A DNA stretch of 64,000 bases from Eledone cirrhosa. Lineage: Eukaryota. The first letter of the stretch is position 1, and the number at the start of each line of letters is the position of its first letter. The stretch is taken from the NCBI GenBank assembly GCA_964016885.1, contig OZ024752.1:40052001-40116000 (forward strand), written 5' to 3'. A program made the translations under genes and the position numbers. A model generated the notes under the pieces. The model was not told the origin of the DNA. It made no database searches and worked only from the letters and a program-made list of their open reading frames with translations. This document shows, in pieces, positions 10,661 through 52,200 of this stretch.

Positions 10661-12185
10661 ATGGTAAAATGGTGAAGGGGTTAGCTTATATACATTATCT
10701 AAACAATGTGTTGATTACCTGCCTCAACTTATAAAATGAGGCTTGGATTTTTGCCCATTTCTCAAACTTAAAATAAGGTGGGAGGTTGGCTTATATTCAA
10801 GTATATGCAATATATCTGACGGCTTATAACATAACCATCATATTTCAACTATAAAAGGTTGCTGACTCTCTACAAGGAATAAGTGTGATATATAAGTACT
10901 ACTCATATATAAGGGAAATATCAGCTATTATAACGAAAGTTCTAGATTCCATTAAAAAAAAAAAAAAAATCACACATTCATAAAATTACCGTATATACTC
11001 ATGTAAACGTCAAATCTTTTAGACGATTTTGTAACAGTGATATTTCGACATACAGGATGATACCTTGATCCACAAATTTTGACCTGTTATCTGAAATACT
11101 TGGGCTGACATATGAGGTCTATGGTAAATTCCAGATTTTTTTTACCATAAATAGGGAGTCAACTTTTACATGAGTATATATGGTATATATTTATTGTTAA
11201 AGAGGAGGAGATAAAAGTGATACATACCATTCCTTCATAACCATGTGGCAAAAGCATTACTAAACCACTTTGTCGCACCCATTTTGCTTGACCACTTGAA
11301 ATGAATTGATCAATAATACACTGGGCAGTATTGTGAAAGTCTCCAAATTGAGCTTCCCAAATAACTAAAGAATTTGGGTTTGTCATTGAGTATCCAAGTT
11401 CAAAACCTGTTTAGAATTAAAGAAACAAGAATTAAAATTTTAAATTGTATTCTCACTATTATAATTTCTGGAGTAAAATATAAGTAATAAAATAATAGAA
11501 AATCATGAAAAACATCTAAAAAGAAAACTTTCTAAACATAAAATATGAATTATTTCCTGCCAGACCAAATGAAAATGATATTTAAATAAAAATATCTATT
11601 TATTTTTGCAATGATAGAGAGCTTTTTCCTTCGCATGGACATTATATTTATATATATATATCATCATCATCATCATCACCATTTTACGTCCGTTCTTCCA
11701 CGCTAGCATGGGTTAGACGGGTTGTCCTGTTGTGAGCAGTGTCTGGTCGGCTGACCATGCCTTGCTCATACAGGAACTGATTTGGCTTGATTTCTACAGC
11801 TGGATGCCCTTCCTAACACCAACCTCATTTACAGTAAGTGCTGGGTGCTTTTTCGTGGCGCCTACACGTCCACTTTACAGTGTGGGCTGGGTGCTTTTTT
11901 GCCGTGGCATCTCCACGACCACTTTACAGTGTGGGCTGGGTGCTTTTTTGCCGTAGAACCTCCACGACCACCTTGCAGTGGGGGGTGTGGGGGCATATTG
12001 TCTATATGCTTCAGCTTGTACCCATGGGAGGTCGGGTACTCTGTATTACTGCGGGACGCCAGAGGTCACGGTCGTGTGTCATCGCCTTTGAGCGGTGTAA
12101 TTGGGTAAGGTCGGCTTTTATCACCTCATCCCAGGTCACCCCACTCCGCGGTTTCCATCGACTTCTAGTGCTCTGCACCTTTTTT

Positions 12186-15131: not shown

Positions 15132-18100
15132 AAGAGAGAAAGAGAAAGAGAGAGAGAGAGAAAGAGAGAGTTAGTTCCACAACAAATTAACATAAACCAT
15201 ACTTGAGAACACGCATTTCACCCAAGGATTCTTCAACTCGTGAATGGTTATGGATAACCATACACGAGTTGAAGAATCCTTCAGATGAAACAAGTGTTCT
15301 TAAATATGGTTTGTTAATTTGTTGTGGCACTAACTCATTCTTTGGACCGAGTCTCTACCAACTTTGGATATAACCTCCATGTCTTTCACTACTATATATT
15401 ATGTTGTACGGGCCATTACAAGGCCAACAAGTTAGGCTCAATCTACTGAAACTGAAAGCAGTAAGAATATAATACATAAAAAGTTAAGCTTCTGACAGGA
15501 TCAGCTGGAGGGAGTATTTGAGGGTTCTGCCCCCACGACCCTCTCAGGAATAAGTGGGTGAAGAAGAAAAGCTTACCTCTGTGTAACTCAAAATCTTCAG
15601 GTGGCAAACTGAAACTCATTCCAATGTGTTGTAACGTTTCTTCATCAATACCAGTCAGAGGAGATTTCATAGGATCTCTACCTTCAAAGAATCCACTCCA
15701 AGGAGAATCCAACCAATCCCGGTTACGTACAGCTGTTTCCTTCTTCGAGGCTAAGTGGGCTTCTTCACAGATCTTATCATATTTAGCTACTTCATCCTTA
15801 GTAAACAAAAAAAAATGATACTCAATCAAATCTGTATCAAACTGAAGTTCACAATTACATGCTTCCCGAAATACGCCAAAACTACACCTGACGTACCCCT
15901 TCCATACACATGCACACACGTGTATCATGACTCATGCACTGTTCATTTTCCTGATGTTTGTACATTACCCTATGTACTATACATACACTTTTTGATGAGT
16001 TGTAGTGCACCTGAGCACTGTACACAATATTTCATTATTATTATTATTATATACATGATATGAGAGATGACATAGGACTGAGTTGACTGGCAATGTGCCA
16101 TAATACAAAAAACTAACGAAATATGCCTGCCTCATTTCTTTCCAATCTCCGTAAGTCCCCCATACACTACCATGTAGCACTGCTGTTCACACACAAGCAT
16201 CAAACAATTTGCCTTTCCCTGAGGAAGAAACCCTTTCTAGCGCCTTTAACTTTTTCCAGCCCTATATTTCTTTCCTCTATATTGCTTTCTCACTTCCTCT
16301 CTCTCCCCTTCTACCCTTCTCTGGAAGAAATCTGATAAGTTTGGACCTGGAGAGGGGATGGGCGCTGCCAGATTTTAAAATGCCCAAGAAATGCCATATG
16401 CCACCATGGCGACCCTACAACTCCATCAGGAGTTGCAGGATCAAAGATAGAAGGATAGAATGTCCCTTGTAGAATCAGACCATTCTAAAACATTGTCAGT
16501 TAAATCTATAGGAGACTGTTTTAGGGGCTCAGTCAGTTTCCATTTTTTTTTTAAACTGGCCTTTTAACCTCCCTCCTCCCTTTTCTCTCCACTGTAACCT
16601 TCTGAACTAGATTAAAACTCATCAAAGCTGACTGACAGATTCAAATATATATATATATGACATTTTCACCAATATCCTCTAAACTCTATCAAATAAGAGC
16701 TTATGCTTTACTGGCTAAATATTGAGGAATTTTCAATTGAACACATTGTCTTGTTTCCTACAATGATGTTTTCATCAGAAAAGTAAGTCTTTAAAATTTT
16801 GAAAAAGTTTTCATCTAATAAAAGAAAAAAATGGAAACCCTGTTTTATTTCAATTAGAGGAAGTGAAACTGGTAACTAAAAGAGGAGTTATTTCCCTTGT
16901 ATAGATAAGAAGGAATTTACGCATTAATAAACAAATAAAACAACATGCAATTTTAAAAAGCTTTTCAATGTCTTTTGGCTCAATGTGACACCAAAACATT
17001 TAAAGAGTTAATTGGCAAACAATAGCTTTTGGTACAACACTCTTCATAGAATCTGTTACAAGTATACAGAAAAAAAAAAAGAAACCTTATATGAAAGTGA
17101 CATTACTACATACCTCATATTCCTGTTGAGACACAATTCCTGAATGAATCAATCTCTCAGCATAGGAGGCTAATACTGTTGGCTGTTTGGCAATTTTTTT
17201 ATACATAAGAGGTTGAGTGAACATAGGTTCGTCAATTTCATTGTGTCCACTTCGCCTGTAGCACACCTGTAAAACATACATATATGATCTACTATCACAT
17301 TTGCAGTTGTTATTTTCTAGATTAATATATACAGAGAGGTAATGCATGTAGAAAGAAACTATTTAGTGGAAGAAAGTTTGTTGTATTTTATTCTTCAATG
17401 ATTATATGTAAGTTTAAAACTGGTAACAGTTTTAAAAATATAAAATGAATATCAGAATGGTAAGCTACTTAAAGTAGGGTTACAAATAAAAAAAATTTAG
17501 CATACAGCATATCCCACACTTCTTCATTTTAAAATATTGACACAAATTTAAATCTGTGTATTACTATTTTAACACTTGAAGATCAGTTCCAGTTTTTCAG
17601 ATCAGGAGAAGAAACACACAAAAAAAAAAGCTTTGCAAAGAATATATCTGTATGACTTAACTAAGCTAAAATAAAAATAAAAAAAGGATTACAAAATATT
17701 GCATATCATTTCATTTTATGTCTGCTTCTCCCTGCTTGCAAGGGTGGGACGGGAACTGATTCTGGCTTGATTTCTACAGCTGGATGCCCTTCCTGACACC
17801 AACCTCATTTACAGTGAGTGCTGGGTGCCCTTCCTAACACCAACCTCATTTACAGTGAGTGCTGGGTGCTTTTTTGCCGTGGCACCTCCACGACCACTTT
17901 ACAGTGGAATGATAGGGACCCCAGTCCCTATCATCTCATTTCTACAGCTGAGTAAACTGGAGCAATGTGAAATAAAGTGTCTTGCTCAAGGACACAACAC
18001 ATCACCCGGTCTGAGAATTGAACTCTCAACCTTTCGATTGCAAGGCCAATGCTCTAACCACTAAGCCATGTACCTCCATATACACATTGAAAACACGGAA

Positions 18101-21100
18101 TTTACCAGATCAATCACAACGTCTTTGTTGAAGCGATGTCGCCATTCAGAGGCTACTTTGCAAACATATATCACAGCTTCGGGATGGTCGGCATTCACAT
18201 GAAATATTGGAGCATTGATTACTCGAGCCACATCAGTCGGGTAAGGTGATGACCGCGATACACGAGGATCAGTTGTAAAACCAATCTGAAGGAAAACAGA
18301 ACAAAGAAAAATTACCCCTTTAGCATTCACATTACTCTATATATACTATTGTATTTTCATGGTAAAGGCTTTACCTCACATAATATCTCACATAACATTT
18401 ACATTACTCTATATATACTATTATATTTTCATGGTAAAGGCTTTACCTCACATAATATCTCGCATAACATTCACATTACTCTATATATACTATTATATTT
18501 TCATGGTAAAGGCTTTACCTCACATAATATTTACATTACTCTATATATACTATTGTATTTTCATGGTAAAGGCTTTACCTCACATAATTATCTCACATAA
18601 CATTTACATTACTCTATATATACTATTATATTTTCATGGTAAAGGCTTTACCTCACATAATTATCTCACATAACATTTACATTACTCTATATATACTATT
18701 ATATTTCCATGGTAAAGGCTTTACCTCACATAACATTCACATTACTCTATATATACTATTATATTTCCATGGTAAAGGCTTTACCTCACATAACATTCAC
18801 ATTACTCTATATATACTATTATATTTTCATGGTAAAGGCTTTACCTCACATAATATCTCACATAACATTCACATTACTCTATATATACTATTATATTTTC
18901 ATGGTAAAGGCTTTACCTCACATAATTATCTCACATAATATTCACATTACTCTATATATACTATTATATTTTCATGGTAAAGGCTTTACCTCACATAATA
19001 TCTCACATAACATTCACATTACTCTATATATACTATTATATTTCCATGGTAAAGGCTTTACCTCACATAATATCTCACATAACATTCACATTACTCTATA
19101 TATACTATTATATTTCCATGGTAAAGGCTTTACCTCACATAATATCTCACATAACATTCACATTACTCTATATATACTATTATATTTCCATGGTAAAGGC
19201 TTTCCCTCACATAATTATCTCACATAATATTCACATTACTCTATATATACTATTATATTTCCATGGTAAAGGCTTTCCCTCACATAATTATCTCATATAA
19301 TATTGAATCTATGAGATTTTGAAAGTATTCATTTTGAGAACAATACCTTAACATCAGTTTGAGTGACCAGTTACAGCCAGTTTCAACAGAAAAAGGTAGA
19401 GAATTCTGGCCGGTTTTGGCCGGTTTGAACATTAAAGGGTTAAGTTAAAATCTATTCAAAGCCAAAGGTTCATCAGGCCAGTGTTTATCATAGGATTATC
19501 TATCTTTCACACACACACACACACACACACTCTTTCTCTCTCGCTGTAACTAACGTGTTGACAGACTTGCATTACATAAAGTCTTTTTTTTTTAAGTGTT
19601 ATCACTTCCATCCTGACATCACAACTTTTCCCTTCTCCCCTTTTTCCTCTCCTACATATATGTTGTCACAGACAGACAGGCAGAGAACAGCTCTTTACTC
19701 CTTCCTTTTTCCTCTCCTACATATATGTTGCAACAGACAGACAGACAGAGAACAGCTCTTTACTCCTTCCTTTTTCCTCTCCTACATATATGTTGTGACA
19801 GACAGACAGAGAACAGCTCTTTACTCCTTCCTTTTTCCTCTCCTACATATATGTTGTGACAGACAGACAGACAGACAGACAGAGAACAGCTCTTTACTCC
19901 TTCCTTTTTCCTCTCCTAGATATATGTTGTGACAGACAGACAGACAGAGAACAGCTCTTTACTCCTTCCTTTTTCCTCTCCTACATATATGTTGTGACAG
20001 AGACAGAGAACAGCTCTTTACTCCTTCCTTTTTCCTCTCCTACATATATGTTGTGACAGACAGACAGGCAGAGAACAGCTCTTTACTCCTTCCTTTTTCC
20101 TCTCCTACATATATGTTGACAGACAGACAGGCAGAGAACAGCTCTTTACTCCTTCCTTTTTCCTCTCCTACATATATGTTGACAGACAGACAGACAGACA
20201 ACAGCTCTTTACTCCTTCCTTTTTCCTCTCCTACATATATGTTGTGACAGACAGACAGACAGAACAGCTTCTCTTTTATAATACAGATTAATCTCTATTG
20301 GAAATTACAATATAGTAGAACGTTGATGAGTTACCTGATTGTTAACAACTATGTGAATAGTACCATGGGTTGTATACATTGGTAGATCACTGAGATGAAA
20401 TGTTTCATAGACTACTCCTTGGCCAGCAAAGGCAGCATCTCCATGGAGCAGTACACTCATCACCTTAAAATAACAACAAAGTAAGAATAAAACATGGAAA
20501 ATAATTTGACAAAAACACATCACAGTAATAAACCATTTTGAAATCTACTATCACCTATCTCGTCAAACTTATACCAACATTTTTTCATTTTACGTCCGCT
20601 TTTTCCCTGTTTGCAAGGGTGGGACGGGAACTGATTCTGGCTTGATTTCTACAGATGGATGCCCTTCCTAACACCAACCTCATTTACAGTGAGTGCTGGG
20701 TGCTTTTTTGCTGTGGCACCTCCACGACCACTTTGCAGTGGAATGATAGGGACCCAGTCCTATCATCTCATTTCTACAGCTGAGTAAACTGGAGCAATGT
20801 GAAATAAAGTGTCTTGCTCAAGGAAACAACATCACCCAGTCTGAGAATTGAACTTACAACCTTTCGATTGCAAGGCCAATGCTCTAACCACTAAGTCATG
20901 TGCCTCCATGGACATAAAATAATGTAAGGTGGTCATGCTGATGACAAAAATGAGAAAGTACCCAGTCCTACCTGTAAGGTGATCGTGCTGTACAGTAACA
21001 CAGAATTATTGTCAGAAGAGAGAAATAAATATGCCAAAAATGTATAAAATATCATCCCAATGGAAAATGTTACAGAATCACTGAAGAAATTAAAGCATTT

Positions 21101-24100: not shown

Positions 24101-27100
24101 GATCTGTATGCCAGAAGTGACAGTAAACAAATCATTTGTATAGTGAAACAGACCAGATTTGATACAGAGAACTCCATTAATGTATGCTGCAATGGTGAAA
24201 CCTAACAATGGTCGAAGCTGATAGGTAGGCAGCTTAACTAGGAGATTCTCATACCACACGATGGTCAGCTAAAGAGTTCATAGGCTGACTATATAGAAGT
24301 AATGCTAGAGCAGTGAAATCTTGCATGCTTTAATTTCAACTCTTCTTAATAACTGCATTGTTTCTTTCCCAATAACATCAGCACCTGAACAAGAATATTG
24401 CAATGGAACAATTGTAGTATAACCAAACTGTTACAAAGTGCCATCAAATTTCAATGATCAGAGCGAGTAAACCTAAAATGGACAATATAAAATTGAATGA
24501 TAATTTCTCAATAACAATGTTTGAAGCCAAAAAATTGGATTCATCTTGTCAAGCAAAAACTATCACACTCTGTAAAGATAGGATTTACCAAACTCACCGT
24601 GTTGATCGGATAAGTCTTGCTAGTATAAGCCTCTTCTCCTCAGCATCAAATTGCATGATGTTGGGTACCTCAAATTTGCGACGAATCCAATCGGTCTGCT
24701 CAAGGTTGTTGATAAACATAAACTCAATACCTATCTGTCGGCAGTAAATTTCCTGAGGGATAAATAGTTTAACATTCTAGGCATTGAACAGTTAGTTTTA
24801 AAATATTGCTTCTATTAATTACATTAATGAAAACTGTAAAAAGCAAATACAATTCAAATACAATGGAAATTGTATACTAGAAAACAAAAAATGCAAATAC
24901 AAAAACAATTCCATCCAATATACATTGTGCAATTAATTGGAATGCTATCCGGAGATATACATACCTCTAGTCTCTTAATGATTTCACGTAATGGAAGCTC
25001 AGATTGATCTCCGCCAATATATGTGGTATGTGGAAGTCTAAAGATTTTATCAAGATCAGGCTCATCTAACAGAAAGATAGTTGCAAACTATTATCAATAC
25101 AGGCATTATGCTATTGAAAACATTAATCCACTTATATTTTAATGCAATAAAAAATATCTAAAGTAAAAAGCAAGGCAACTAAAATATATTTGTTAAAAGA
25201 GGTAATGTGAGAGAATAATACGTAGGGAAACAAAGAATCTCTCACCAAATTTATTAAATTTTGAACAACAAAATTTTGTTTTATCACAAGGATCAAATTT
25301 TTTAAAAATTAAATTGCAAATAAAATAAATAAAATCTACTACTATACATAAACATTAAAAGCAAGAAAATAGAAATATAATTCAAGTTATACAAAGCACA
25401 GGTTAAATTATAAAACAATACATGGCAGATTTTATCACAAGGTTGGTATAATTATAATTATACAACCAGGGCAATATATTGAGACAATAGTATAAAACTA
25501 ATAGAAATATAGAAATTGCTATCAATAAATCTCAAAATATATGAGAGAAAGGATTTGTTTTTTTTTCTGATTTCATGAGAAACTAGAAATATATCTAAAA
25601 CTTAATTTCCAACTTTGATTTGAAATTACCGCATTACTTATGTAACAAAAGAAAGCATACAACATTAATTCTTCATAATTTATAAGATTTCTATTCTTTT
25701 AAAAAAAATGGAGGGGAAATCTACTTTAAAATACTTTAATAAAGATTTAGAAATGATTTCAGAGAATCAACGAAGAAAAAAAAAGGATTGGCACAAAACT
25801 ATATATTTTAATCTAAACCTACATAAATTTCTGTGAGAAATGTTGATTTTTTTTTTCAATATTTATAATAATAATAATGAAATTATTGTGTACAGTGCTC
25901 AGGTGCACTACAAACCCTTTTTTTTTTTTAGTTTTTAACTGTATTTAATGACATTAACAAACTCATTTGCATTCTTAATACTTTACCTGAGACAACAAAA
26001 TACATTTTGATTCTTTTCATTTTCTTGAGAGAATTGAAGACACAAAGCAAATTTATAATACAATTTCTAACATGAAACCAGTAAAGATCAAACAGTTTAG
26101 TTATTGGCATCAGGAATTCTTTAAAAAAATATATCTTTACACATGGTGATAGAATAGAATACACCTGTTCCTTTTTATAGATGAAATCAGTAAAAACTAT
26201 TCCATTAAAGCAAGAATGGAGCAGAGTAATATATCAACTATTTACTTAACTTTATTTTGTCACTCTATGCATGTATACATGTACATCCATACACATGTGA
26301 ATGTATATATACACACACACACGCATATATATATAGATATATATATATATATATGATTGAAAATAGTGTAAATGAAGGAAAAAATTGCAAAATAAAAAAC
26401 ATTGTTTTGAATATCAGACCTTTTCTATAAAAACCAAAGAGCTAGAAAAATAGTAAAATGGATAAGACTGCCAGTTTAGAACAAGTTCAAATTTGCTGCA
26501 GGTTTTTTACATCATTTATGAAGATAACACACTACCTATATGTTACCTAGTTACTGGGAAAAAGTAGCACCCAGATCTACTGGTAGCCTTTTTATAGTTT
26601 ATGTCTACCTAGAGAAGACAATAAGAAACCACTCTAATAAACCCATCTTATATTTTGTAAATGCTTCATCTGAAGAATCAGCAAGAGTTAATTTAAAATA
26701 TATATTATATTCATGTTGTTAATCTAGAAAAGTAAATTAAGAATTTTCTTTTTTAAATTCATATTCTAAAATATATAACTTTATCAAACATTAGCCTAAC
26801 ATGATAGTATAAGATAATATTTAAACATTATAACAGAATGTGCTAATCCTTGTAAAATAAATTGACCATAAAATAAATTACCTATTTCGAAATGCCAAAA
26901 CCAGTTCCGGTTCTATGAAACAAATTGCCCATTTTAAACAATTCCTATTTAAATCGAAATCTTCCAACATAATTTTATATAAGAATCTTACATTCAGTTA
27001 TCTTAGTATTGAAATATTAAATAATTTCAATAACTTCTTTAAAATTTTTCATTAATTAAATCATTAGAAATACAGTCACGAAAGGGTTAACAAATGATGA

Positions 27101-33100: not shown

Positions 33101-36100
33101 GTGATGGCCTGAAACCTAGTAAATCTATTAATGCTAACATAGTAAACAGACTTTGACAAATATATTCACAATACTTTGCAAAGACTAAGAGAAAAGCAAT
33201 CAAAACGAATTGGTTAAAAAACGTTTATACAAGTTACACATTAGAAGATAAGTACAAAACCAACCAAAATTTTAAAAAATAAGGAACAGAGAAAAAGTAG
33301 AAAATGAGAAAACAGAATATCTTTTCATGAGCAAAAGAAGAGAATGAAACATTAAGACTTAGAAAACTGGTGACAACATTGACAAATAGAATTATACCAT
33401 TAGCAGCTTCAGACACCTAGCCTTACCAAGGTCGTAATGGTTGATTAAAATCTCGGACATAGATGAACCATCTGAGCGCTGATCTAAGCCAAGTGGATCA
33501 ACTGCAGCTAGCTCATGACCACGGATCTAGTGAGAGAGAAACCAAAAAGACACAAATTAGGAACTAATAGTGAATGAATTAAGGTACCAATCCAGATCCC
33601 TGAAAACACCATCAGATGCATAAAGAATTTCTTCAAATCGCTGAAAGAAAAAGAAATAATTAGTATTTATGCATCCCCAGGCCAATATATTATATATATA
33701 TATATACAAAGAAAAGATTTTAGCACTTATCTTTACATCTTTGATTAAAATATTTCCAATTTTTCTTTTCACAATCTTTAGTAAAAAATGAATTTAAAGT
33801 TTTTAATATATATATACATATATGTAGTCGATCTCTTGGATTTTTATGAGATGCTGAAATAAAGTTAATATAAAGTGTGCAGAGATGCTATAAAATAGCT
33901 TATAATGTCAGGTGAAGACCCTTAAAGGCAAAAAAAGAAGTTGCCATTGGCCACCATATATTTTTTATTTGAGTACATCTATTTTAATGAAACCAAAATT
34001 AAAAAGAAAATAATTCACGTCAGCATAAAAGCAATAGATTAATTCAACAATGTTTTCACTTTGAATGTTGTTATATATGCCAGGAAATGTTTCTGTACTG
34101 AATAAAATATTTAATAATTTACTGTTTTGACAACACCAATATTAATATTCAATTCTCAACCATTATCTATATTTGAAAATGTGAAATGACTAAGAACATA
34201 TTTTTCATCAAAATTGTTTTTAATAGGTACTAAAGTCTTTTAATTGGCCTTCATATTCCCTGAAATAAAGCCATTTCTTTTAATAGTTCACATTCCCTCA
34301 TTAGAATCTTTGTACTGTTTACTGCTGTAAAAAGTAACTCTTTAAAATGAAAATATAAACAAAAAATTTATAAGTCTTATGAAACCAGCCTACATTCTCA
34401 GTTATTTTAAAATTTAATTGAATTTAAGTATTTAAATTAGAAATATAATAACAAAAGGGATATTTCAGCATTTTTAGATATTTTGAATACTGATTTCAAG
34501 TTCTTAAGAAATATTTTGTGATTTAAATATATCAAAATATATCATTTAATGTTCATTTTCCTTACTAGCAAAACTGTACTTAATTGAGGCTACTGATCTC
34601 TCAGATGGGTTGGAGGTTACATCTCATAGATGTTCCAACACTTTACAGAGTGCACCATACATTTTATCCTGACACGAACACCTGGGGAGCTCGTCATGTC
34701 TAAGACCTGACTGAAAAATCCTTCAACCTTTTGTGTGAGAGGTATTCTACAGAGTGTTTATATTGTGTAGATTACAAACACTAGGGAAATTGTCATGCTT
34801 TTGATACAACTGAAGTCTCTGCAAGTATATATATATACACATCTAACCCATGCTAGCGTGGAAGATGGACGTTAAACGAAGATGATGATATATAAACACA
34901 CGTCATTTTACTTTTCATTTTTGCTATTTATATTCTTGCATCATTTTTTTTTTTTTTTGCCAGAGATGCTCTTCCTTTTATAATCATAATTTGTCATCAT
35001 TAGCAAGACTGTTCAGATCCATAATATTCACATTGTTTTGTAATAAAGCCTTTAGTTGCATGATCAGTGAGGAATTGCAAAACTTGGAGTAGCAACAGAA
35101 AGTAATGTCAACCTATATTATTTTAAAAGAGGCTAAATATTGGAAATACAATTTATAACCTGGCCAGGAAATTACATCCAGTGGGTCACCCAACGTGCAA
35201 TTGAAAATCCAAGAAGAAGAAAAATGCAAACTACTAATCAGTTCACTAGAACAGGGAAAAAAAAGAACATTTTTTGGTGACAAGACCACCAAGAGACCAG
35301 GTTGAGGAGGAGCACTCTTCTCTAAGAAACTTACACAACTGAATGCCAACATTGCTGCACTCAGTGAAACATGGCTCTTAGAAGGAAAACTTAAAGAAAC
35401 TGTCTCAGGTTATACATTCTTCTGGAAAGGGTATCAAGTAGAACAAGAAAGAATCCAAGAAGTTGGCTATGCTGTGAAAACCAACATCATTTCAGACCAT
35501 AAATTCACACCAACCACCATCAACCCATGAATCTCGGCATACCACTCCCTGAAGAAAATTTTATTACCTTTATTTCTTCTGCCTATGCCTAACCTCTTGG
35601 TATTAATGAAGATGAGAAAAATCAACTTTATCAACAGCTAACCAACGCCACTCTCAAAGAACCACCTAGAAACAAACTTCTACTCTTAAGAGATTTCAAC
35701 ACATGAATAGGGAAAGATAATTGCTTATGAGAAAATATCATTGGTAAAGATGTCAGGAACTGCGATCCAAATGGATTTATCCGCCTTAGTCTTTGCTCAG
35801 AACACTCCTAGTTAATTACCAATACACAGTTCCGACTTACCAATCACTTGAAGATCCCAGGGAGGTATTGTTGATCAAAACATTGGCACCTTCTGGACTA
35901 TGCCATCATCTGCCAAAAAGATTTTTTTTTTTAAATGTTCTTGTCACTAAAACAGCCCCCAGTTCTGATAACTGCTAGACAGATGACCATCTTATCTCAC
36001 AAATGAAAATTATCTTCTGTAGCAAACCCAGGCAGTAGAAATCACCTCTATCATGTAGAAAATTCAATATCACAAAATTTCAACATCTAGATATCTGAAC

Positions 36101-36734
36101 CAACTATGAAACAGCTATACAACAAACAAAAGGTCCTCTCCAAACACATCCATAACTGCATTCTGGAAGATACATAGTCACCAACCCAACAGATCATCAC
36201 TGAAACAGCTAAAAGTACCATCAGTTTCACCAAGAAGAAAAAGCAGAACAGGCTTGACATCAACATCAACTATGATAAAATCAACCAGCATAGTGACATA
36301 AAGGAAATAGCTCATATATTTCATGAACAAGACCTAGTTTTCTAACATGAAGGAATATTTTGCAACACAAATGTACTTCTGAGAAAGATGTGGGAGAACA
36401 AAACAGGATCAGCTCCTGAAGATTTTGGTAAATTGGCAAAGCAAGTCTTCAAGAACAAAGATCTGAACCAAAATACAAAATTGATAGTCAACCTACATTG
36501 GCATCAATCCATTACCAAAGTAATACACAGTTTCAAAACCTGAAGAAGAGGAGGAAAAACAATAAAAGACTCAACTTAATCAAGTACTACCTTGCCATCT
36601 ATATCACATGTTCCATGCAAAAATATATATATATATATATATAAAAAATTTGGGACCCCGACGGCTGAGCTCCAGCTGTTTCAACAGCTAGATCCGAAAT
36701 GTATATATGTGTGTGTGTATGTGTGTGTGTGTCT

Positions 36735-36765
<31 letters not shown>

Positions 36766-37227
36766 GTGCCGGTGATCAACATGATAAAGTAACCAGTACA
36801 CACAATAAAGTGGTTGGTGTTAGGAAGGGCATCCAGCCATAGAAAGTTTGTCTCAAAAGACATGACAACCTGTTCTGAGCACTCAAAAGAAAGTATGACC
36901 ATAGATAAGCGAGATGTAGAGCTCCCAACCTGTCTGGGAAGTCAGTAGCCCAGTTTCAGTACTGACTTGGTCTATGTAGATCAGTCCAACCCTTGCTAGC
37001 AGGGAAAGCAGAAATTTATTGATGATGATGATAATGATGATATATATTACAAGTGGTATCCTGAAGGGTATCGGGGAAATAACCACAGTTAAATAAAGTA
37101 CTCAATACATTAGTAGAGAATAAGCATATTTATTATGTAGACGTGTGACTTCTACAGGACTATAACTGTTTCATTTGTATGAAATCACCATTCATTAGAA
37201 CGAAACAGTTCCAATCCTTTATAAGTC

Positions 37228-37271
<44 letters not shown>

Positions 37272-40200
37272 ATTATTATTATTGTTGTTGATATTAAGAA
37301 CTATTAAGGGTAGAAATTATTTCTGTTTCTCTTATTTTACCCAGTATAAATTCATAAAACAATTTTTAAAATATTCATCAGCAATGTTTTTATTTAAAAT
37401 ATATTAGAGACCATTTCTTTTTTTACAGCAGTACCAGTTGGAGAATCCAATATGAACAATGTAAAGATCCATTGTGAACAATGTAAAAAAAAAAAAAAAG
37501 GCTATAGAGATAGCAATTATTACATATCCTGTAGTGATTCTCAATACATACCCAATCCATAGTTTGTCAGAATTAGCTCTGGTGGAGTCTCAGAATCTAA
37601 ATCTGCAGAATCAATTCCTAACGGATCCAATTTAGCTACATTATGACCACGAATCTGTTTGAAAGGGAAAGATAAAATGAACAGACATACAATTATATCT
37701 ATAGAATATAGTGTAATAGGGAACCAAGTATTCAGCTCTCACCCTTTCTTTTTTTAATGGATAAAGTATAAGCTATATAATTGTTTGTTGTTTTGTATTA
37801 AACAAAAACAATGTGTGGGTGCAATCATACAGATATATGAATAATACTATAATCAAGCTGTTAAGTTTGATAAACTATCTTATTTAAAATAATGTATTTA
37901 CAGTTTTCTGGTCTCTTTAAATGAAAGAAAAATAACCTGTATTATAAAAGGAATAATATATCCTTGAATAAAAGAAATATTAAAATATTTAGTGAATCTT
38001 AACTTTAGCAAAACACTTATAGCAGTTGTTCCCAATCTTTTGTGCACCATGCCCCACCTCAACATCTCAAACATTTTTATGCCCCACTTTGATATAAAAA
38101 CAGCAATGAACAGCTACAAAGTGTAAACAAATTGGCATATGGGTGATGCCGAGGCACAATAACGTGTGGAGGAGGTGAGACAGGAGTTTCTGACCATAAT
38201 TTGCCTTGGTGTAAAAATATTAGGGTAAAATCTGAAGTGTGCTCTCATTAACATCATTTTCAAAGAGCACCCCACAGGGGGAGCAATCACTTGGCTTACA
38301 GAGTAAACATTTTGTGGAAGCACAAATCATTTTTTTTTTTTTAAACTAAACAAGACTCCAGACCTCATTCGCTTTACCGAGTAGGGAGCAACTCGTCAGA
38401 TTGGACCAAGGAAACAATGTTTCCATTGGTCTTTCCAAGTGCTAATACTGTCTACAGGGTTCCTGGTAGAAGGAGCAGCATGAAATAAAGTGTCACATCA
38501 CCCAGTCCGGGAATCAAACTCACAACCTCACATTTGTGAATCCAACACCCTAACCACAGTTAAATATGTATCTATGAAATATATGATCAATGGATGATTG
38601 GCTTCATAGACTTTGATATAGGCCAGTGTAAGAAATACTCAGTGATTTCTTTTTTTATCGCTCAGCTTAGGAAGGGATGGGCAGGTCCCATAACTCTTTT
38701 TGTGGGCTTCAAAGTCTGATGTGAGGAAGAAGAGATATCCTCAAACCATATACCTGGCTCTGAATGTTTGTAACACAAGGGCAAGGTGCTGATGTTAAAC
38801 TGGGTGACAGATTACCAAGTGGGCCATGGTAGAACTTGTGAGTGCAAAGCTCTACAACAAATACTGCAAGGCATCACACCCAAAACTAATAATTCTGCAA
38901 ATCTAGCACCTTTGACTGCTACTTTATTCACGCTGGAAGGATAAAAGGAAAATTTGAAAACTCACTAGAAAAAAGGAATTATTTCACACACTGATAAATA
39001 CTAAAAGGAGGACTGCAGTATATTTTTTTTTTTATATAACTTTAAAACAAAATCTACTTGAAAATCCCATCAAATATTAAATCACAATTAAAATTATATC
39101 TCCAGAAAATGTATTTAAAAATCTTTTCCACCACTTTCTACTCTATGTAACAGGAATTATGACTACAAAGTATATATTTGAAAATGATATTAAATATCTT
39201 CAACCATTTAAATTGAAAGAGTTCTTCAACAGAAACTTGGCCTATTATATTACAGGTATGACATTCAATCAATAGAAAATTTCAATAAATAATATCCAAT
39301 AAAAGAAGTTATCATTCATGCAGCTTTTCTTCGGTGTCTACATGAATTTTGTTTCATCATGGTGAGAACATAGGAAAATAGCATATGTGGAAACTTTAAA
39401 ACTAGATGAAATATTTTTTTTAAATAAGTAACATCTAAATCTGGTGATGAATTAAGTTTTAAAAAATACTCATATTTCAATACCACTTCGAATTGAGAGA
39501 TCACAGCTCTGATATTACAGACATGTGATTAGAATGTCACAGGAAAGAATCGCTGGACAGATTTTACAAAGCAAAACCAGCCAGCAGGAAGGGCCAGGGG
39601 TAGACCCTGAGCAAGATGGTTGGATAACATACATGAGCTCGGCTAGTCTCGCTTGAGAATCCAACTGGATCGATTCAAGACCGTTGTTTCTGATGACAGG
39701 ACCTGCTGGAAGGAGTGTTTAAGGACTGTCCCCCCCCCCCACACACACACACACAACCCTCTTAGGAATAAGTGGGTGTCAAAGAAGAAGATATATTCAT
39801 ATCACAATGGTAATGACAATTGTTCCACCACCACCACCACCACCACCACCACAACCACCACCACAAACAATTGATTGCAAAACAAACATAACATTGCTTC
39901 ATCAGCAACTGTGTCACTAGAAACTAATATTAAATTTTAAATGGAGACAAAAAAACAGCAAATAGAGACACACTCTAATAACAATACGATACACACACAC
40001 ACACACACACACATACACATAGCAAATAAATGATTTTATCATGCTCAACAAATTTTCAAAAGCAAAACAAATCAATAAATTAACTGTTAGCCTGCTATTA
40101 ATGGAAAATACAAATAAACACTGTGCTACCACAGAAGATATTCCCATCGTTATAATGATAAATTTCTTGATTAAATACAGGGTGTTGCAAAAACATTGAC

Positions 40201-43200
40201 ATCATTTCGTAGTCTAATAACATAGCCAATTCTCGCTCAAATGATCTCAAAGTTTAACAAAATGTATAAAAACTAACCAAGTTTAATGTCAAATGATTTC
40301 TTTTTTTTTTTTCAGGTTGAAGAATGTTGTTCACTAGAAATGAAAAGGTGATAGAATATGCTCAAACACAGTCAATGATGTCAGTTTTTATACATCCTAA
40401 TGATACTGTGCATGATATTGTACTTTTAATAAGTTTCATCATACAAGAGCAACCATATATGCTTGACAATAATAGTGGCTGGAAAATGTCAGGTGAGGTC
40501 AATTGGAAGACTTTTGTGAAAAATTAAAAGAAGAAAATAAACATAAGTTGCATGTAATTTTGGTTATCGAGTGCTTAGCAGGCTAACAATTAAGAAATTT
40601 TACTGACAGCAACAAACAATACAATCAATTCATCCATTGACACAATTTTTCTGATTCTTTGTAGATTCTGAAACAAAAACAGATGAATATTGGGAAGGTT
40701 TCTTTCATATAACAAAACTCAACTTTTCTTTTCAGACTTTCTGGGACCAATGAGATTGGCATGACTGATGTTCTTGAACATTTATAAACTAATATGGGAA
40801 GGGAGAACATTTTAGAGGGGTGATGTTCTGACAATGAAAGACAGAGAAGTGCTTTGTACAAGGGCTCAGAGCAGAGTAAGGTGGGTGGTGAGACTGGGAG
40901 AGATAAGTGATTTAAGTAAGCTTCAGTGTAAGCGGCATAAAACCATCCTGTTCCAAGGGACAGTAGCGGTAGAAAACAGAGAAAACCTGGTGAGAACTGA
41001 TCTCAAATCGATGTGACTCACAGAAGAGATGATGTGCTGAAAAGGACCTGTCCAACCCATGCAAGCATGGAAAAGCAAACGAAAAACAATGATGTTAACA
41101 GGATAATTATAAAAAGGAAATATTACACACACACACAAAATATTCTTGTCAAATTTAGATTCCTCTTATATAATAAAGCTACAGGTTAACAGCTATCATA
41201 AATAACTTTTCATATTTCAGATAACATGGCTATTAATAAATCAACTACAGACAGCTCAATGATGTTTGTTCTTCAAAGACATGAAAGTACTTGAGCAAAA
41301 CCCAAGTATTATATGAAATGAGATGTCTCCCATACCTATCTTTTTATAGCCTATTTTAGCTGTGAGGTACATAATTTATGTTCAGTTTCATTGCTATATA
41401 TGATAGATTTTTGAAGTTTAGACATCATGGCGCTGATGAAAACTGTTTTTGGCAGTATCGGTAGGGGATCGAACGCCATGCTTTGCAGCATAGAGTTACA
41501 GTCCTTTGCGGTTTGAGTTCAAATCTCGTCGAGGTTAATTTTGCCTTTCATTCTTATGGGGGTCGATAAAATAGAGTACCAGTAATGCACTGGGGTAATT
41601 GCTGGCCTTGTGCCAAAAGTAGAAACAATTATTATTATTACTAAGGGCAGTGGATTGGTAGTATCAGTAGATCGTCAGATATGCTTTACAGCATAGAGTT
41701 ACATCCCTTTACATCCTGAGTTCAAATCCTGCTGAGGTTCGCTTTACCCTTTCATTCTTATAGGATCAATAAAATAAAATACCAGTAATGCACTGAGGTC
41801 AATTTAATTGACTTCCCCCTCACCCAAAATTGTGGGCCATGAGCCTAAATCAGAAACCATTGTTATTGGCAGGGTCATTGTAGTGAAATCAATATTATGG
41901 TTGCCTAGCAATGAATAAATTCCAGGTTCAAGTCTTGCAAGAGGATTTGTTGATCGATTCTGTCTCAGATTGCTGCTTATCATATATAATGCCATCTTAT
42001 ATAACATGGAGGCACATGGCTTAGTGGTTAGAGCATTGGCCTTGCAATCGAAAGGTTGTGAGTTCAATTCTCAGACCGGGTGATGTGTTGTTTCCTTGAG
42101 CAAAACACTTTATTTCACATTGCTCCAGTTTACTCAGCTGTAGAAATGAGATGATAGGGACTGGGATCCCTATCATTCCACTGCAAAGTGGTCGTGGAGG
42201 TGCCACGGCAAAAAAGCACCCAGCACTCACTGTAAATGAGGTTGGTGTTAGGAAGGGCATCCAGCTGTAGAAATCAAGCCAGCATCAGTTCCCGTCCCAC
42301 CCTTGCCAGCAGGGAAAAGTGGACGTAAAATGAAATGATAACACATGTATAACCTATTTGGATGTTTGTTTGTTTTAAGCTGATGAATTGGGTGAATTAT
42401 CAGAGCAGCCCTTGCTCTGGCTGAGTTCAAATCCTGTCATGGGTGACCTGTGTGTTGCATCCTTCCTTCAGTAGGTTGCCAAAGCACTGAATTATTTGTG
42501 CAGTGGCCTGCATGATTATCAGTAGTTTACTGAATAGAATTTAATTACAAAAATGACATGCAACAAGCTAAATGTCAAATAAATAAAACTGACAGTCATT
42601 GGTTTGAAAATTCTGTTGAACTTAAAATAACCAAGCAACACACACACACTGGGACTTAATTACTGATGTCTCACTAATTAGCTTCAAATGATTACTTTCT
42701 TAATACTTATTTTACCAGGCCATATGATACTTTCAAGCCACTTAGCTTTGTCTAAGCATATAAACATTATGAGCATAAACAATTAATTTATATTAAAATT
42801 GTTACTGAATGACTTTTGTTAAGTAAATATTAATTCTAATATCTTCTAATATATTCTACACCCTAAATAATTACAACAATAATATAAAAGAGTTAATAAA
42901 CAAAAATAAATTTAGTTCTAATATTCATTCTTTTATCTTTTTAGAGATTGTATTTTCCCCCAAGTTGGCATATGCTGGATGAGTTTGAAAATCAGAACTT
43001 CTACCGGTATATATAAAACAGACTTCCTGATAAGTACTCTTCCTAACACAAACTAATATATCAGATTAAATAAAGTAATAATTATTAATTACTTGTGTTG
43101 ACAACAACAATTACACTACAACCAATGTAATAATACTCTTGTGGGATAGTTAAACAATAACATTTAAAAAAAGGGTCAATTCTAAAGTTAAAATAAATAA

Positions 43201-46200: not shown

Positions 46201-49200
46201 TTGGATAAAAATGTATCACAATAATAGAGAAACATTTGAGATGTTCATTTTACAATTTTATAATACTGATTTAAACCAAAATATGTATCATACATAGATG
46301 CTAACAGAGAACGTTATGGAATTTTTACAAATTAAAAACTTTAGAAAAATGTGAATTATACAAAATATTATTAATATAAATTATCTTCTTATAATGATTA
46401 AGATTATAGATTTTTTTAATTAATGAACAAAGAAATAAATATTTCTCAATTAATGAAAGAACATTAATATATTCTACCTACTGAAATAGAAGCATAAATG
46501 ACATTCTAAAAGTTACCAATTCATTAATTTCCACAATATTCTCTATATAAAACATGACACACTGTATCTATTCTACATTATTTAAGAGCAAAAAAAAAAA
46601 AAAAAAATATCTAAACCTTTATCTCACCTGATACGACCGGATAATCGACTGCACAGAGAGATGATGTTCAATGATCTTCTGGCTGGGCATAGCTGGAGCG
46701 GGCACCATCTCAGTACTGGTGGGAACTGGAGCTCCACCTAATGTAGGTGGGCGCATGTAGGCAGAACTAACTCCCCGTGCTGTATTTCGAAAATACACAT
46801 CCCAAGACTAGAAAAGTAAAAAAAAAAACAGTGGGGGGGTGTGAGAGCATGGTGGGATATAAAATGAATTGAAGTAAGGTGGTAGCATAATGGAAGAGAA
46901 GAGAGTAATGACAAAAGTGACAGAGTTTGATGGATGAGGTAGCTATGTATCATATTCATCGTCGTTTAACGTCCATTCTATATAATAATAATTGTTTCTA
47001 CTTTTGGCACAAGGCCAACAATTATCCCACTGTATTACTGGTACTTTATTTTATCGACCCCGTAAGGATGAAAGGCAACGTTAACCTCGGCGGGATTTGA
47101 ACTCAGACCATAAAGGGCCGTAACTCTTTGCTGCAAAGCATGGCATCCAACCCTTTACCGATAGTGCCAATCCACCGAATAATAATTGTTTCTACTTTTG
47201 GCACAAGGCCATCAATTACCCAGTACATTACTGGTACTTTATTTTATCGACCCCGTTAATGAAATTATATATACAACAAAATACTTAAATTATTTTATTT
47301 TAAAAAAACCTTAAAGTTATAACTACAGAAAATCGTAGAGTATATATAGCTGTTCTTAAAATAAAGATTTATGAACAAACATGACAAATTATAAAAGAAT
47401 AATAATATCAATCAGATGCAGGATAGTCTAGGCTAACCCCAAATGTTGGGGTAAATACATTTTGCATCCAAACATAACCACTTCATATATATTTTAAACT
47501 TAATTCCCTAAAATATATTACTGGCATTTTCCCCCTTGCCATCAGAAGACAAAAAGAAAACCTGCTTGCGTCCTATCCACCAAAAGTATGAATATGACAA
47601 AAAAATATATTGTTTACACAAGCCATGAATAAATCATCATCACCGTTTTACGTCCGTTCTTCTACGTTAGCATGAGTTAGACGGGTTGTCCTGTTGTGGG
47701 CAGTGTCTGGTCGGCTGACCATGCCTTGCTCATACAGGAACTGATTTGGCTTGATTTCTACAGCTGGATGCCCTTCCTAACACCAACCTCATTTACAGTG
47801 AGTGCTGGGTGCTTTTTCGTGGCACCTACATGTCCACTTTACAGTGTGGGCTGGGTGCTTTTTTGCCGTGGCACCTCCACGACCACCTTGCGGTGGGGGG
47901 TGTGGGGGCATATTGTCTATATGCTTCAGCTTGTACCCATGGGAGGTCGGGAACTCTGTATTACTCCGTGACGCCAGAGGTGTAATTGAGTAAGGTCGGC
48001 TTTTATCACCTCATCCCAGGTCATCTTGGGTCTCCCCACTCCGCGTATAGTTGTATATTAACTTTTAACCCAAACCTTTTTTTCTTCAAAATAACAGTGT
48101 GTCTTATATTCCGAAAAATATGGTACATGAGAATTTAGACTATTAGTACTGAAGAAATTGTTCTGAAAAACATCCAAAAGAGAAAAAAAAGAGTCTATTC
48201 TACACAAATTTTAATGATTTTGTTATCAATTCCACTTTCTAGAACAAATATATTTGTGTTGATATATTAGAAATATGACAATAATAATTGCATTGAATAA
48301 AAAAAAAATATTATTGATAATTGTTTGTAGTCTCTTTAATTAGCAGTTGTATTTAATTTGAAAGATGTTAAAATAACAGAAATAGAATGCCAAGGAGAAA
48401 CTATGAATTACATACACACACATACACAATGCTGGGCACTGCAGGGGTCGAAATGTTTTGATTAGAATCCATACGTGTGAGGAGCAGATCAATATTGGGG
48501 TTAGGTCTATCACATTGATAAAGACCTCGAGCTAATCATCTGTGGAACATATGAGGTGTTATCAAATCATTTCTGAACTAGTTCTGTAGCACACCAACAG
48601 ATGGTAACACAAAAATGTATCATACTTAGAAATAAAGTATGGGTTTGCATCATAAAAGGCATCTGGCCATGGAATAATGCCTTAGGTCTTATCCAAACCA
48701 TTCTATAATGGAAATCATCATTTTTTAACCTCTATTTTCACACAGACACACACATACACTTACCAATGATCGTGTGTGTGTGTGTATATATATATATATA
48801 TTTATAGTTAACCTACAGTCAGTAGGCCCCTCCAAACCAAACATACACCTCAACCCACTACCCCTACTCCATCCTCCCACTCCCGCCAACACCACCCTTG
48901 CTCTATAAAGTTATGTTGGTACCACAACATCCAGTCCAAACTAATGAGATCATGTAGGTGTCACGACAAAAAAAACAGTCTACACTGTAATGTGGTCGTG
49001 TAGGTAACAAGGTAAAAAGCTCCCAGTCCACACTGTACATGTGGTTGGTGTTAGGAAGGGCATCCAGCCGTAGAAAACCTCCCAGATAGTCCTATACGAG
49101 CGAGACACAGTCACCCGATCAATCTTGCCTCAAATGGGACAACTCCCGTCTAATCCATGTTAGCGTGGAAGATAGACGTTAAACGATGATGATTATATAT

Positions 49201-52200
49201 ATATATATATATATAATCATCATCGTTTAACATCTATCTTCCACGCTATATAAGGCGTGTGGCTGAGTGGTTAGAGAACTGGATTCGCAATCGTGAGGTT
49301 GTGAGTTCGATTCCTGGACCGGGCGATGCGTTATGTCCTTGAGCAAGACACTTTATTTCACGTTGCTCCTTCTACCTGGAGTTGCGACCGATAGATAGTA
49401 TTAGCAATTGGAAAGACCAATGGAAACACTGTTTCCTCGGTCCGATTTGACGAAAGTCGATCGACTGTCGATATATATATATATATATAAATCCTTTCCT
49501 TTTAAAAGTATATAGAAGTTATTTACAACTTTTACTCCCTATGTGACTTAATCAGCAATGTATAGAGGGGGGGGGGGGACATGCCCATATGAGCTATGCA
49601 TCACATCTACTTATACCACATACATCCAAACATCTTTCTATGCCACCATTCACCACTCCCCCTTCCTCTTCAAGACCCCTTCTCATCTATCATGCTCTCC
49701 TGCCACCCACTACTCGTTCCCTCACCAGCAATATGCAGCTATTTCTTCCATCATACACTTACTCCTTTCTGTCATTACTGCCACCCCCTCTATTACTCGT
49801 CACTCACTCTCTCTTCCATTACGCTCCCTTTGCAACTACCTTACACTATTTCATTCAGTTTATTCCACCATGCTCTCACACCTGCTGCTTCTCTCATATT
49901 TTCTTCTAATCACCACCACCCTCGTCATGCACAGAGAAAACATTGCATGTTGAGTACCCCTTCAGTCTTGCAAAATTCAATGCAAACTCACTAGTGGTGG
50001 CACCTCGATAAAATACACCCAGTACACTCTGTAAAGTGGTAGTGGCAGTGTCACAAAATACACCCAGAACACTCTGTAAAGTGGTAGTGGCAGTGTCACA
50101 ACAAAACACCCAGCACACTCTGTAAAGTGGTAGTGCTGGCACCATGACAAAATACACCCAGCACACTCTGTAAAGTGGTAGTGGCAGTGTCACAAAATAC
50201 ACCCAGCACACACTGTAAAGCAGCAGTGCCAACATCACAACAAAACACACCCAGTACACATTGTAAAGTGGTAGTGCTGGCACCATGACAAAATACACCC
50301 AGCACACTCTGTAAAGCAGCAGTGCCAACATCACAACAAAACACACCCAGTACACATTGTAAAGTGGTAGTACTGGCACCATGACAAAATACACCCAGCA
50401 CACTCTGTAAAGCAGCAGTGCCAACATCACAACAAAACACACCCAGTACACATTGTAAAGTGGTAGTGCTGGCACCATGACAAAATACACCCAGCACACT
50501 CTGTAAAGCAGCAGTGCCAACATCACAACAAAACACACCCAGTACACATTGTAAAGTGGCAGTGCTGGCACCATGACAAAAAGCATCTTAGACACTCTCT
50601 AAAGTGGTTGGCATGAGAAAAGGCATCTAGCTACAAAAGCCATGTCAAAAATGGAATGCACGAGCAAAATATGGTTCTCCAACTTCTCATGTTTCAGACA
50701 ATGATGAACTGTCTAACCTATACAAACATAAAAAAAAAACAGGTATAAAATGCTGATGAGTACACTACCATTATGCCAACAAACCCACCCTGCTTTTTCC
50801 GTTTTGGCGTAATGGTAGTGTACTATGAGAGGTGTGGGTTCAACTCCCATGTCAGCTGATATCCATCTCTTTTCCATTCAGTGGGTTTAGACACCAGACA
50901 TGGAGCCACATGGCTTAGTGGTTAGAGCATTGGCCTTGCAATCGAAAGGTTGTGAGTTTAATTCTCAGACCGGGTGATGTGTTGTTTCCTTGAGCAAGAC
51001 ACTTTATTTCACATTGCTCCAGTTTACTCAGCTGTTAAAATGAGATGATAGGGACAGGGGTCCCTATCATTCCACTGCAAAGTGGTCGTGGAGGTGCCAC
51101 GGCAAAAAAGCACCCAGCACTCACTGTAAATGAGGTTGGTGTTAGGAAGGGCATCCAGCTGTAGAAATCAAGCCAGAACCAGTTCCCGTCCCACCCTTGC
51201 AAGCAGGGAAAAGCGGACGTAAAATGAAATGATGATGATGATGATGATGATGACTATTTAATCATTGTTACACCATAGTCTCTATTTCTATTCTAAACTT
51301 CATTCCCCACATTCCAAACAAAAAAAAAAATATGGTTGAAAGTGAAAGCAGTCAAACGTGAAGGTCATTAAGTGTATAGTGGCTTTATATAAACATACTG
51401 TTTACATTTGAAAGCATTATTTCACTTCCTGCAAAATTTAGTTTTTCCGTTTTCATTCATGATAATGTAATTAAAAATGGAAACCAAAATATATTCATAC
51501 ACTTTAAATGCAGATGAAATATGTATGTATACATGTGTGCATTTAAGTAAAAAAACCCCACTAAAGTTCATATCCCTATTCAATCTCATTATTGTGGATT
51601 GGCAGTATCGGTAGAGGGTTGGACGCCATGCTTTCCAGTATAGTTACGTCCCTTTATGGTCTGAGTTCAAATCCCGCCGAGGTTGACTTTGCCTTTCATC
51701 CTTACGGGGTCGATAAAATAAAGTACCAGTAATGCTCTGGGTAATTGCTGGCCTTGTGCCTAAAGTAGAAACAATTATTTTCTTTAACATTGTTACCAAT
51801 CCAACCCAAAACCAGCTCTGGTTCTATAAAATAAAGTATGCCATTTTAAAGGTTTCCAATTTATATTAAAATCTTCCAACATAATTTTATATAAAAATCT
51901 TACATTAAGTTATATCTTAGTAATGAAATAATTGTTTCTACTTTTGGCACAAGGCCAGCAATTATCCCAGTGTATTACTGGTACTTTATTTTATCGACCC
52001 CGACCCCCGTAAGGATGAAAGGCAAAGTTAACCTCGGCGAGATTTGAACTCAGTACGTAAAGGGACGTAACTGTGCTGCAAAGCATGGAGTCCGACCCTC
52101 TACCAATAATGAAATAATTGTTTCTACGTTAGGCACAAGGCCAGCAATTACCCAGTGCATTACTAGTACTTTATTTTATCGACCCCGTAAGGATGAAAGG

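Follow-up and report, generated by a model that had tools for sequence, protein, structure and literature searches.

OGDH locus and a pair of alternative exons

The window, that is, the whole 64,000-nucleotide stretch of DNA analysed here, contains on its minus strand the whole coding span of OGDH (2-oxoglutarate dehydrogenase E1), at 5595-62744, with residues 1-1009 covered by 19 tblastn segments for each isoform. A constitutive upstream exon of 180 nt (46628-46807), ending in phase 0, and a constitutive downstream exon of 101 nt (24965-25065), starting in phase 1, enclose two alternative exons on the same strand. Exon A (37552-37654), the upstream alternative, has 103 nt and 34 codons, and exon B (33427-33526), the downstream alternative, has 100 nt and 33 codons; both run from phase 0 to phase 1 and are flanked by AG and GT, and exon B is without a DxDxD motif. 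The positions, sizes, phases and peptides of this paralogous pair are as a preliminary description of the DNA gave them. The two exons are tandem homologues with equal phases, placed where YQ is joined to xRGH, and they are identical at 14 of 33 residues (42%), B being shorter by one codon. When 6,731 AG-anchored 99-nt stretches from the two strands were scored against exon A, exon B reached 73 and the best stretch clear of both exons 29, and no third copy of the exon was found.

The reading frame allows just a single exon of the pair to be used at a time. The upstream exon (46807-46628) followed by A and the downstream exon (25065-24965) gives an open frame, as does the same arrangement with B in place of A. 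Joining A to B produces D-P-W-S-stop, the stop beginning at nt 12 of exon B, and skipping both shifts the frame to a stop at nt 97 of the downstream exon; inclusion of both or neither thus gives a premature stop, which in each case lies far upstream of the later exon junctions. The immediate stop on double inclusion and the frame shift on double skipping had both been claimed beforehand, and both claims hold.

Isoforms in related species

The 33 residues of exon B are identical in XP_014777606.1 (isoform X2 of Octopus bimaculoides) and XP_029636246.1 (isoform X2 of O. sinensis), alongside which stand the A-type X1 isoforms XP_014777605.1 and XP_029636245.1, respectively. The suggestion in the preliminary description that exon B is easily missed by annotation is therefore contradicted, since RefSeq holds both isoforms in both species. 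Exon A matches the Octopus X1 isoforms at 33 of 34 residues and the same pair is present there, the window, as assembled, differing by an Asp at exon A codon 15 where all nine of the other cephalopod A-type proteins have Ala. Both single-inclusion forms are thus seen in relatives, in the X1 and X2 models of the two Octopus species and in Logan contigs.

That exon B is a decayed and rarely used duplicate lacking function is a reading we consider highly improbable. Its strong divergence from exon A and its missing codon would fit such decay, but neither its splice sites nor its frame are disrupted, the isoform has been annotated twice and the exon is identical in three octopod sequences. In a distant cephalopod-like Logan protein, known from a transcript contig, 31 of its 33 residues (94%) are retained, more than the average for the protein, whose identity to its Octopus counterpart is 87.8% over the full length. 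This conservation argues strongly against loss of function. Use of exon B is itself read from the RefSeq models of relatives and from the Logan contigs.

Of 20 invertebrate clusters, 16 show two alternative forms of the segment (10/10 in one set and 6/10 in another), among them cephalopods, gastropods, bivalves, a nemertean, starfish, a crinoid and a sea cucumber; the four clusters with one form have only one or two members each. Isoform pairs from the same species differ solely inside the segment in 13 of the 18 compared, the other five being from Lineus and having a further indel. A metagenome scan for genomic copies yielded two short contigs, each with one copy and with a flank too short to reveal a pair or its order.

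The exon pair is already known, both from RefSeq of close relatives and from a bilaterian catalogue, that of Martinez Gomez et al. 2021 (PMC8373072), where, in the text available, OGDH tandem-exon substitution is event 149, is dated to Bilateria and is exemplified by the Pacific oyster, a mollusc with homologous exons equivalent to this pair; on exon order, the mechanism of exclusion and Ca2+ motifs in invertebrates that text is silent. Its value for annotation is accordingly small. The available part of PMC7969005 describes the limpet Lottia as having DADLD without the duplication; this statement may reflect incomplete annotation, since both exon forms were found in the related limpet Patella.

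We think it probable that A and B form a tandem-duplicated exon pair in the octopod OGDH gene, where the frame survives only single inclusion and the two resulting E1 subunits diverge over a segment of ~34 residues and likely in their allosteric tuning. This last point rests on the position of the segment, which in humans forms the Ca2+ pocket. The literature searched contained no measured functional difference between invertebrate OGDH isoforms.

How the exons may be kept apart

The preliminary description placed the pair at the position of the mutually exclusive exons of mammalian OGDH, and this is borne out: A and B are homologous exons in the same gene and at the same junction as vertebrate 4a (LS1) and 4b (S1, DADLD), with the same phases 0 to 1, and in both systems double inclusion is out of frame. 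The introns are very different. In human the 4a-4b intron measures 122 nt and its branch points lie 25-41 nt away from the donor, whereas the octopus A-B intron (33527-37551, minus strand) is a GT-AG intron of 4,025 nt with 202 AG dinucleotides and an AG-free zone of 35 nt. A motif scan predicts an ordinary branch point, CTAAT, at 33556-33560 on the minus strand, ~30 nt 5' of the exon B acceptor, and the YTRAY branch motif is absent from the first 100 nt of the intron. At sequence level the octopus intron thus has neither the short length with distant branch points nor the long AG-free zone of the vertebrate type. An incompatibility of U2 and U12 splice sites was also considered and rejected, as none of the three donors (GTGAGA, GTATGT and GTAAGG) has the U12 consensus.

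Since the A-B intron is without signs of a distant-branch-point lock, decay of frameshifted transcripts likely enforces the exclusion. Nonsense-mediated decay would then remove the double-inclusion and double-skip transcripts, in place of the vertebrate block by a distant branch point, and splicing regulators would probably set the choice of exon. The Littorina model XP_070186852.1 begins with M-V-L ahead of a B-type exon, and M-V-L is one of only 32 tripeptides possible from the joined end of an A-type exon, which suggests that double inclusion does occur in a mollusc and is not sterically barred. Conserved RNA pairing may also enforce the exclusion; in a look for docking-site and selector pairing among 203 inverted repeats, the 25 of greatest length were mostly AT microsatellites, and none of these lay over an exon or splice site. 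A long-intron, decay-dependent ancestral state has been postulated in PMC7969005, as far as its accessible text goes, and the 4-kb A-B intron would be a natural example of it.

Ancestry of the pair

The octopus and vertebrate pairs both keep xADLD in one copy and have lost it in the other, and the exon of the motif type is 103 nt in octopus and in human, human 4a being 91 nt. The motif is SADLD in octopus as opposed to DADLD in vertebrates, so that the octopus pair has a partner exon without the site and no exon with the full DADLD (DxDxD) site. The order is reversed as well, with the motif copy upstream in octopus and downstream in vertebrates (human 4a is at 44647444 and 4b at 44647657; the same motif-less-first order is found in four vertebrate tandem models). 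The extra insert of vertebrates, exon 5, is absent from all the cephalopod proteins examined.

The preliminary description had left ancestry and convergence side by side. An independent duplication of the cephalopod or molluscan pair, separate from that of vertebrate 4a/4b, would account for the reversed exon order and the different intron architecture, and the diverged copies share little across phyla (mean BLOSUM scores of 51-63 among 4a, echinoderm B and mollusc B). A comparable event, ACOX1, had three origins according to the part of PMC8373072 available. Against this, a pair at the same junction is found in molluscs, a nemertean, echinoderms and vertebrates, and apparently in arthropods too (P0170; Drosophila row in Fig. 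S17), and reversed order is also expected if the motif was present in both ancestral copies and was then lost from different ones. The H..HY signature common to mollusc B and the insect copies points to an old split. A literature search on the exons of Drosophila Nc73EF gave nothing relevant.

The exon tree (51 rows × 34 columns, two flatworm rows being dropped before the AU tests) leaves 29 of its 48 inner branches open, and its long branches meet. With 34 columns, the AU tests reject none of the groupings, whether cephalopod-specific (p = 0.295), vertebrate-specific (p = 0.465) or B with 4b (p = 0.429), so that lineage-specific clades, as convergence would give, stand unrejected. In the same tree the grouping of A with 4b has a support of 34/0. 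Mean scores against human 4b come to 97 in mollusc A and to 90 in gapless gastropod B, and the idea that position makes mollusc B the equivalent of human 4b finds neither support nor rejection. Taking both sides together, we regard convergence as rather unlikely, and the pair would most likely derive from one old bilaterian duplication.

The acidic loop and Ca2+

Codons 15-22 of exon A (37589-37612, minus strand) read D-S-A-D-L-D-S-E. In a gapless alignment to 7WGR the SADLD motif aligns with human DADLD, the preceding Asp falling at the position of human L153 and not at D154. The loop S-x-D-x-D-x-E thus lies at the positions of D154, D156, D158 and S160, which are the human pocket residues in the available part of PMC10827220, with Ser at codon 16 in place of D154. 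This Ser is present in the window and in all nine other cephalopod A-type proteins examined. In molluscan A-type rows, the D156 position is Asp in 14/14, the D158 position is Asp in 13/14, the S160 position is acidic in 12/14 and the full DxDxD is present in five of the 14. The D154 position varies freely among invertebrate A rows (S, A, H, N, C and D). An ancestral acidic loop would have been retained in isoform A and replaced in isoform B.

The preliminary description proposed a probable Ca2+-sensitivity switch. In a true on/off switch of the mammalian kind, isoform A would bind Ca2+ through Ser16, Asp18, Asp20 and Glu22, perhaps helped by the extra Asp15 of this species, and B would not. 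We consider this possible but doubtful. The largely kept acidic positions in molluscan A rows, the rows with full DxDxD and the lack of the motif in exon B speak for it, but the freedom of the D154 position to vary does not, and neither does insect flight-muscle OGDH, which McCormack and Denton are said to have reported as Ca2+-insensitive in 1981. A literature search for Ca2+ data on cephalopod or mollusc OGDH found nothing relevant. At the D154 position, the change D>A abolishes the response to Ca2+, and what D>S does there is given as unknown (PMC7969005, available text); the position before the site is described as hydrophobic in the accessible part of PMC9177970, whereas here it is Asp. 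Judged from sequence, Ca2+ as the signal in the octopod exon pair is unproven.

A wider proposal would join these points: a single bilaterian duplication would have given two motif-bearing copies and a working Ca2+ switch before chordates, the motif being kept upstream in molluscs and downstream in vertebrates; molluscs having one exon with full DxDxD and a partner without the motif (Patella, Gigantopelta, Haliotis and Sinanodonta) would be Ca2+-switchable, and cephalopods would be so through S-x-D-x-D-x-E without a branch-point lock. As a whole this seems to us improbable. Should molluscan isoforms be Ca2+-switchable, exon-based calcium control of the Krebs cycle would be older than chordates. 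The remaining value of the octopus pair is as test material for the effect of D>S, and the switch itself is better tested on those orthologues from limpet, abalone and mussel that have full DxDxD than on octopus. The constitutive downstream exon (25065-24965) bears EPDLD, which corresponds to 'site 2' in human, given as ESDLD in the available text of PMC7969005.

An alternative exon pair in the octopod OGDH gene

On its minus strand the window contains one gene for OGDH (2-oxoglutarate dehydrogenase E1), with a coding span of 62744–5595. Octopus E1 proteins align to it by tblastn in 19 segments of 79–100% identity, the lower values arising where segments extend into introns, which makes it an octopod gene. 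Between an upstream exon (46807–46628, minus) and a downstream exon (25065–24965, minus) lie exon A (37654–37552, minus, 103 nt) and exon B (33526–33427, minus, 100 nt), both with AG/GT borders and running from phase 0 to phase 1; the intron following exon B occupies 33426–25066. The frame stays open with either exon alone. When the two are joined, a stop is reached at nt 12 within exon B; when both are skipped, one is reached in the downstream exon at nt 97. Reading of frame and borders thus confirms the pair as placed in the preliminary description, including its dependence on single inclusion. In a scan of the window's 6,731 AG-anchored stretches against exon A, exon B scores 73 and the best unrelated stretch 29; no third copy was found among them. 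The pair is real, conserved and mutually exclusive, and swaps the same OGDH segment as the vertebrate exons 4a and 4b.

A search with exon B identified one protein among seven candidates, O. bimaculoides isoform X2 (XP_014777606.1), which is 100% identical over the exon. Cluster look-ups recovered the X1 isoform that pairs with it, together with both isoforms (X1 and X2) from O. sinensis/vulgaris; within each pair the differences are confined to residues 143–171. Both forms are also present in a more distant cephalopod-like cluster of Logan transcript contigs (exon B 31/33 identical, whole protein 87.8% identical). Exon B is thus both conserved in relatives and annotated there, and the earlier expectation that annotation would easily miss it does not hold for Octopus.

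Distribution among animals

Two alternative segment forms were found in all 10 clusters of a first set and in 6 of 10 in a second, one cluster being counted on 15 of its 25 members. Among molluscs, both occur in cephalopods, Haliotis, Gigantopelta, Patella, Biomphalaria, Physella, Babylonia, Littorina, Batillaria and unionid mussels; elsewhere, in Lineus, three starfish, a crinoid and a sea cucumber. The second form was not found in 4 of the 20 clusters, each of one or two members and two of them insects. A diverged form is seen in an arthropod-like protein (P0170) and in the Drosophila row of Fig. S17 (PMC7969005, as excerpted), and two named insects have an SADLD form. The accessible part of a published catalogue lists an OGDH event with Bilateria as last common ancestor and Pacific oyster as example (Martinez Gomez et al. 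2021, PMC8373072). The pair, already annotated in relatives and already catalogued, is not new.

In Bradybaena similaris the B-type (P0011) and A-type (P0013) segments lie in two separate gene models whose contigs differ in length, which may reflect partitioning between gene duplicates or annotation choice. In a metagenome OGDH fragment (L002, 700–950), the same phase-0 junction is interrupted by a short intron; an SADLD segment follows, with no intron after it, implying a single unduplicated copy in that organism. Some isoforms of Lineus (P0153, P0157, P0158) and Orussus (P0171) have 14–21 additional residues immediately behind the alternative exon, where vertebrates have the neuron-specific exon 5; the cephalopod proteins examined showed no such insert.

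The calcium site

Alignment of exon A with human E1 (7WGR and 8I0K) needs no gaps. The human Ca2+ pocket residues D154, D156, D158 and S160 (PMC10827220, in the part available) fall at exon positions 16, 18, 20 and 22 counted on the human sequence, where exon A has S, D, D and E; exon B has no DxDxD-type motif in the segment alignment. The leading Asp of the "DSADLD" in the preliminary description is position 15, equivalent to human L153, which is described as hydrophobic within the site (PMC9177970, excerpt). The codon here (37612–37610, minus) is GAT, for Asp, where 9/9 other cephalopod A-type proteins have Ala; either the species has changed, gaining a carboxylate beside the motif, or the assembly is in error. 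Kralovicova et al. 2021 (PMC7969005, accessible text) report loss of Ca2+ sensitivity when the first motif position is changed from D to A, and give the effect of D>S as unknown.

Judged from sequence, it is possible but doubtful that this octopod has a Ca2+ switch like the mammalian one. Some form of cation site would suit the molluscan A rows, in which the D156 position is Asp in 14/14, the D158 position Asp in 13/14 and the S160 position acidic in 12/14, with full DxDxD in five of the 14 and exact DADLD in three. Against it, position 16 varies freely among invertebrates, and McCormack and Denton (1981) reportedly found the insect muscle enzyme insensitive. Denton and co-workers are said to have placed the origin of Ca2+ sensitivity with the chordates. 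As relayed second-hand in part of PMC7969005, the proposal of Denton et al. 2016 makes the duplication older than the Ca2+ site.

A full DxDxD exon accompanies a partner lacking it in Patella (P0149/P0010), Gigantopelta (P0140/P0005), Haliotis (P0135/P0136) and Sinanodonta (P0164/P0049). Patella thus carries both exons, in contrast to the limpet Lottia, which the available text of PMC7969005 describes as having DADLD without duplication. A search of the freely readable literature text found no paper testing whether SADLD or molluscan DxDxD exons confer Ca2+ activation.

Ancestry and exon order

The motif-less exon comes first in vertebrates (4a ahead of 4b), whereas in the window the motif-type exon does. 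The vertebrate order is also seen in four tandem gene models (P0025, P0037, P0043, P0057), which run 4a and 4b together, are probably annotation errors and are useful for exon order only. The segment tree (51 segments, 34 columns) resolved little, and AU tests, run on 49 rows after the removal of two from flatworms, rejected none of the cephalopod-specific, vertebrate-specific and B=4b groupings; support for A=4b was 34/0. Gastropod B copies often keep DL (three GDLD, and SADLE in Patella) and have an H..HY signature in common with the SADLD copies of insects. These patterns fit, without proving, one old duplication in which both copies started with the motif and its loss differed by lineage. 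We consider a single origin of the pair probable, mainly because of the taxonomic spread and the published dating.

Mutual exclusion

Vertebrates have a short intron between 4a and 4b (122 nt in human, from the published coordinates available), and their branch points 25–41 nt from the donor prevent double inclusion. The A–B intron in the window measures 4,025 nt and contains 202 AG dinucleotides, with an AG-free zone of 35 nt; a motif scan found no branch motif in its first 100 nt, and an ordinary CTAAT, the predicted branch motif, lies ~30 nt before exon B. At the sequence level, then, the distant-branch-point lock is absent. The octopod pair departs from the vertebrate Ca2+ switch in three defining features: motif, order and branch-point lock.

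All donors are of the ordinary GT kind. Most of the longest inverted repeats are microsatellites, and none of the longest touches a splice site. One inverted repeat (37146–37228; 38-nt arms, 76% complementary, 7-nt loop) lies within the intron, ~320 nt downstream of exon A. Exon choice would be regulated, with nonsense-mediated decay of wrong products as a likely backup because both stop upstream of many later junctions; the same arrangement is suggested for the ancestral long-intron state in the accessible text of PMC7969005. An out-of-frame ATG near the end of exon A (37560–37558, minus), in frame with exon B on double inclusion, would yield a protein without targeting peptide. The Littorina model (P0192) has an M-V-L start immediately ahead of its B-type exon, which fits an A-to-B joined transcript read from such an ATG; this one model would imply that double inclusion leaks through and that exon A also precedes exon B in a gastropod.

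Repeats

Tandem repeats and a dispersed repeat family occupy 2071–2920, 19444–20294 and 49909–50598, with many dispersed copies (e.g. 11717–12105, 17771–18061, 42024–42284 and 47681–48010). They are probably mobile-element remnants, and the long open frames to which they give rise in the introns and the flank are spurious.
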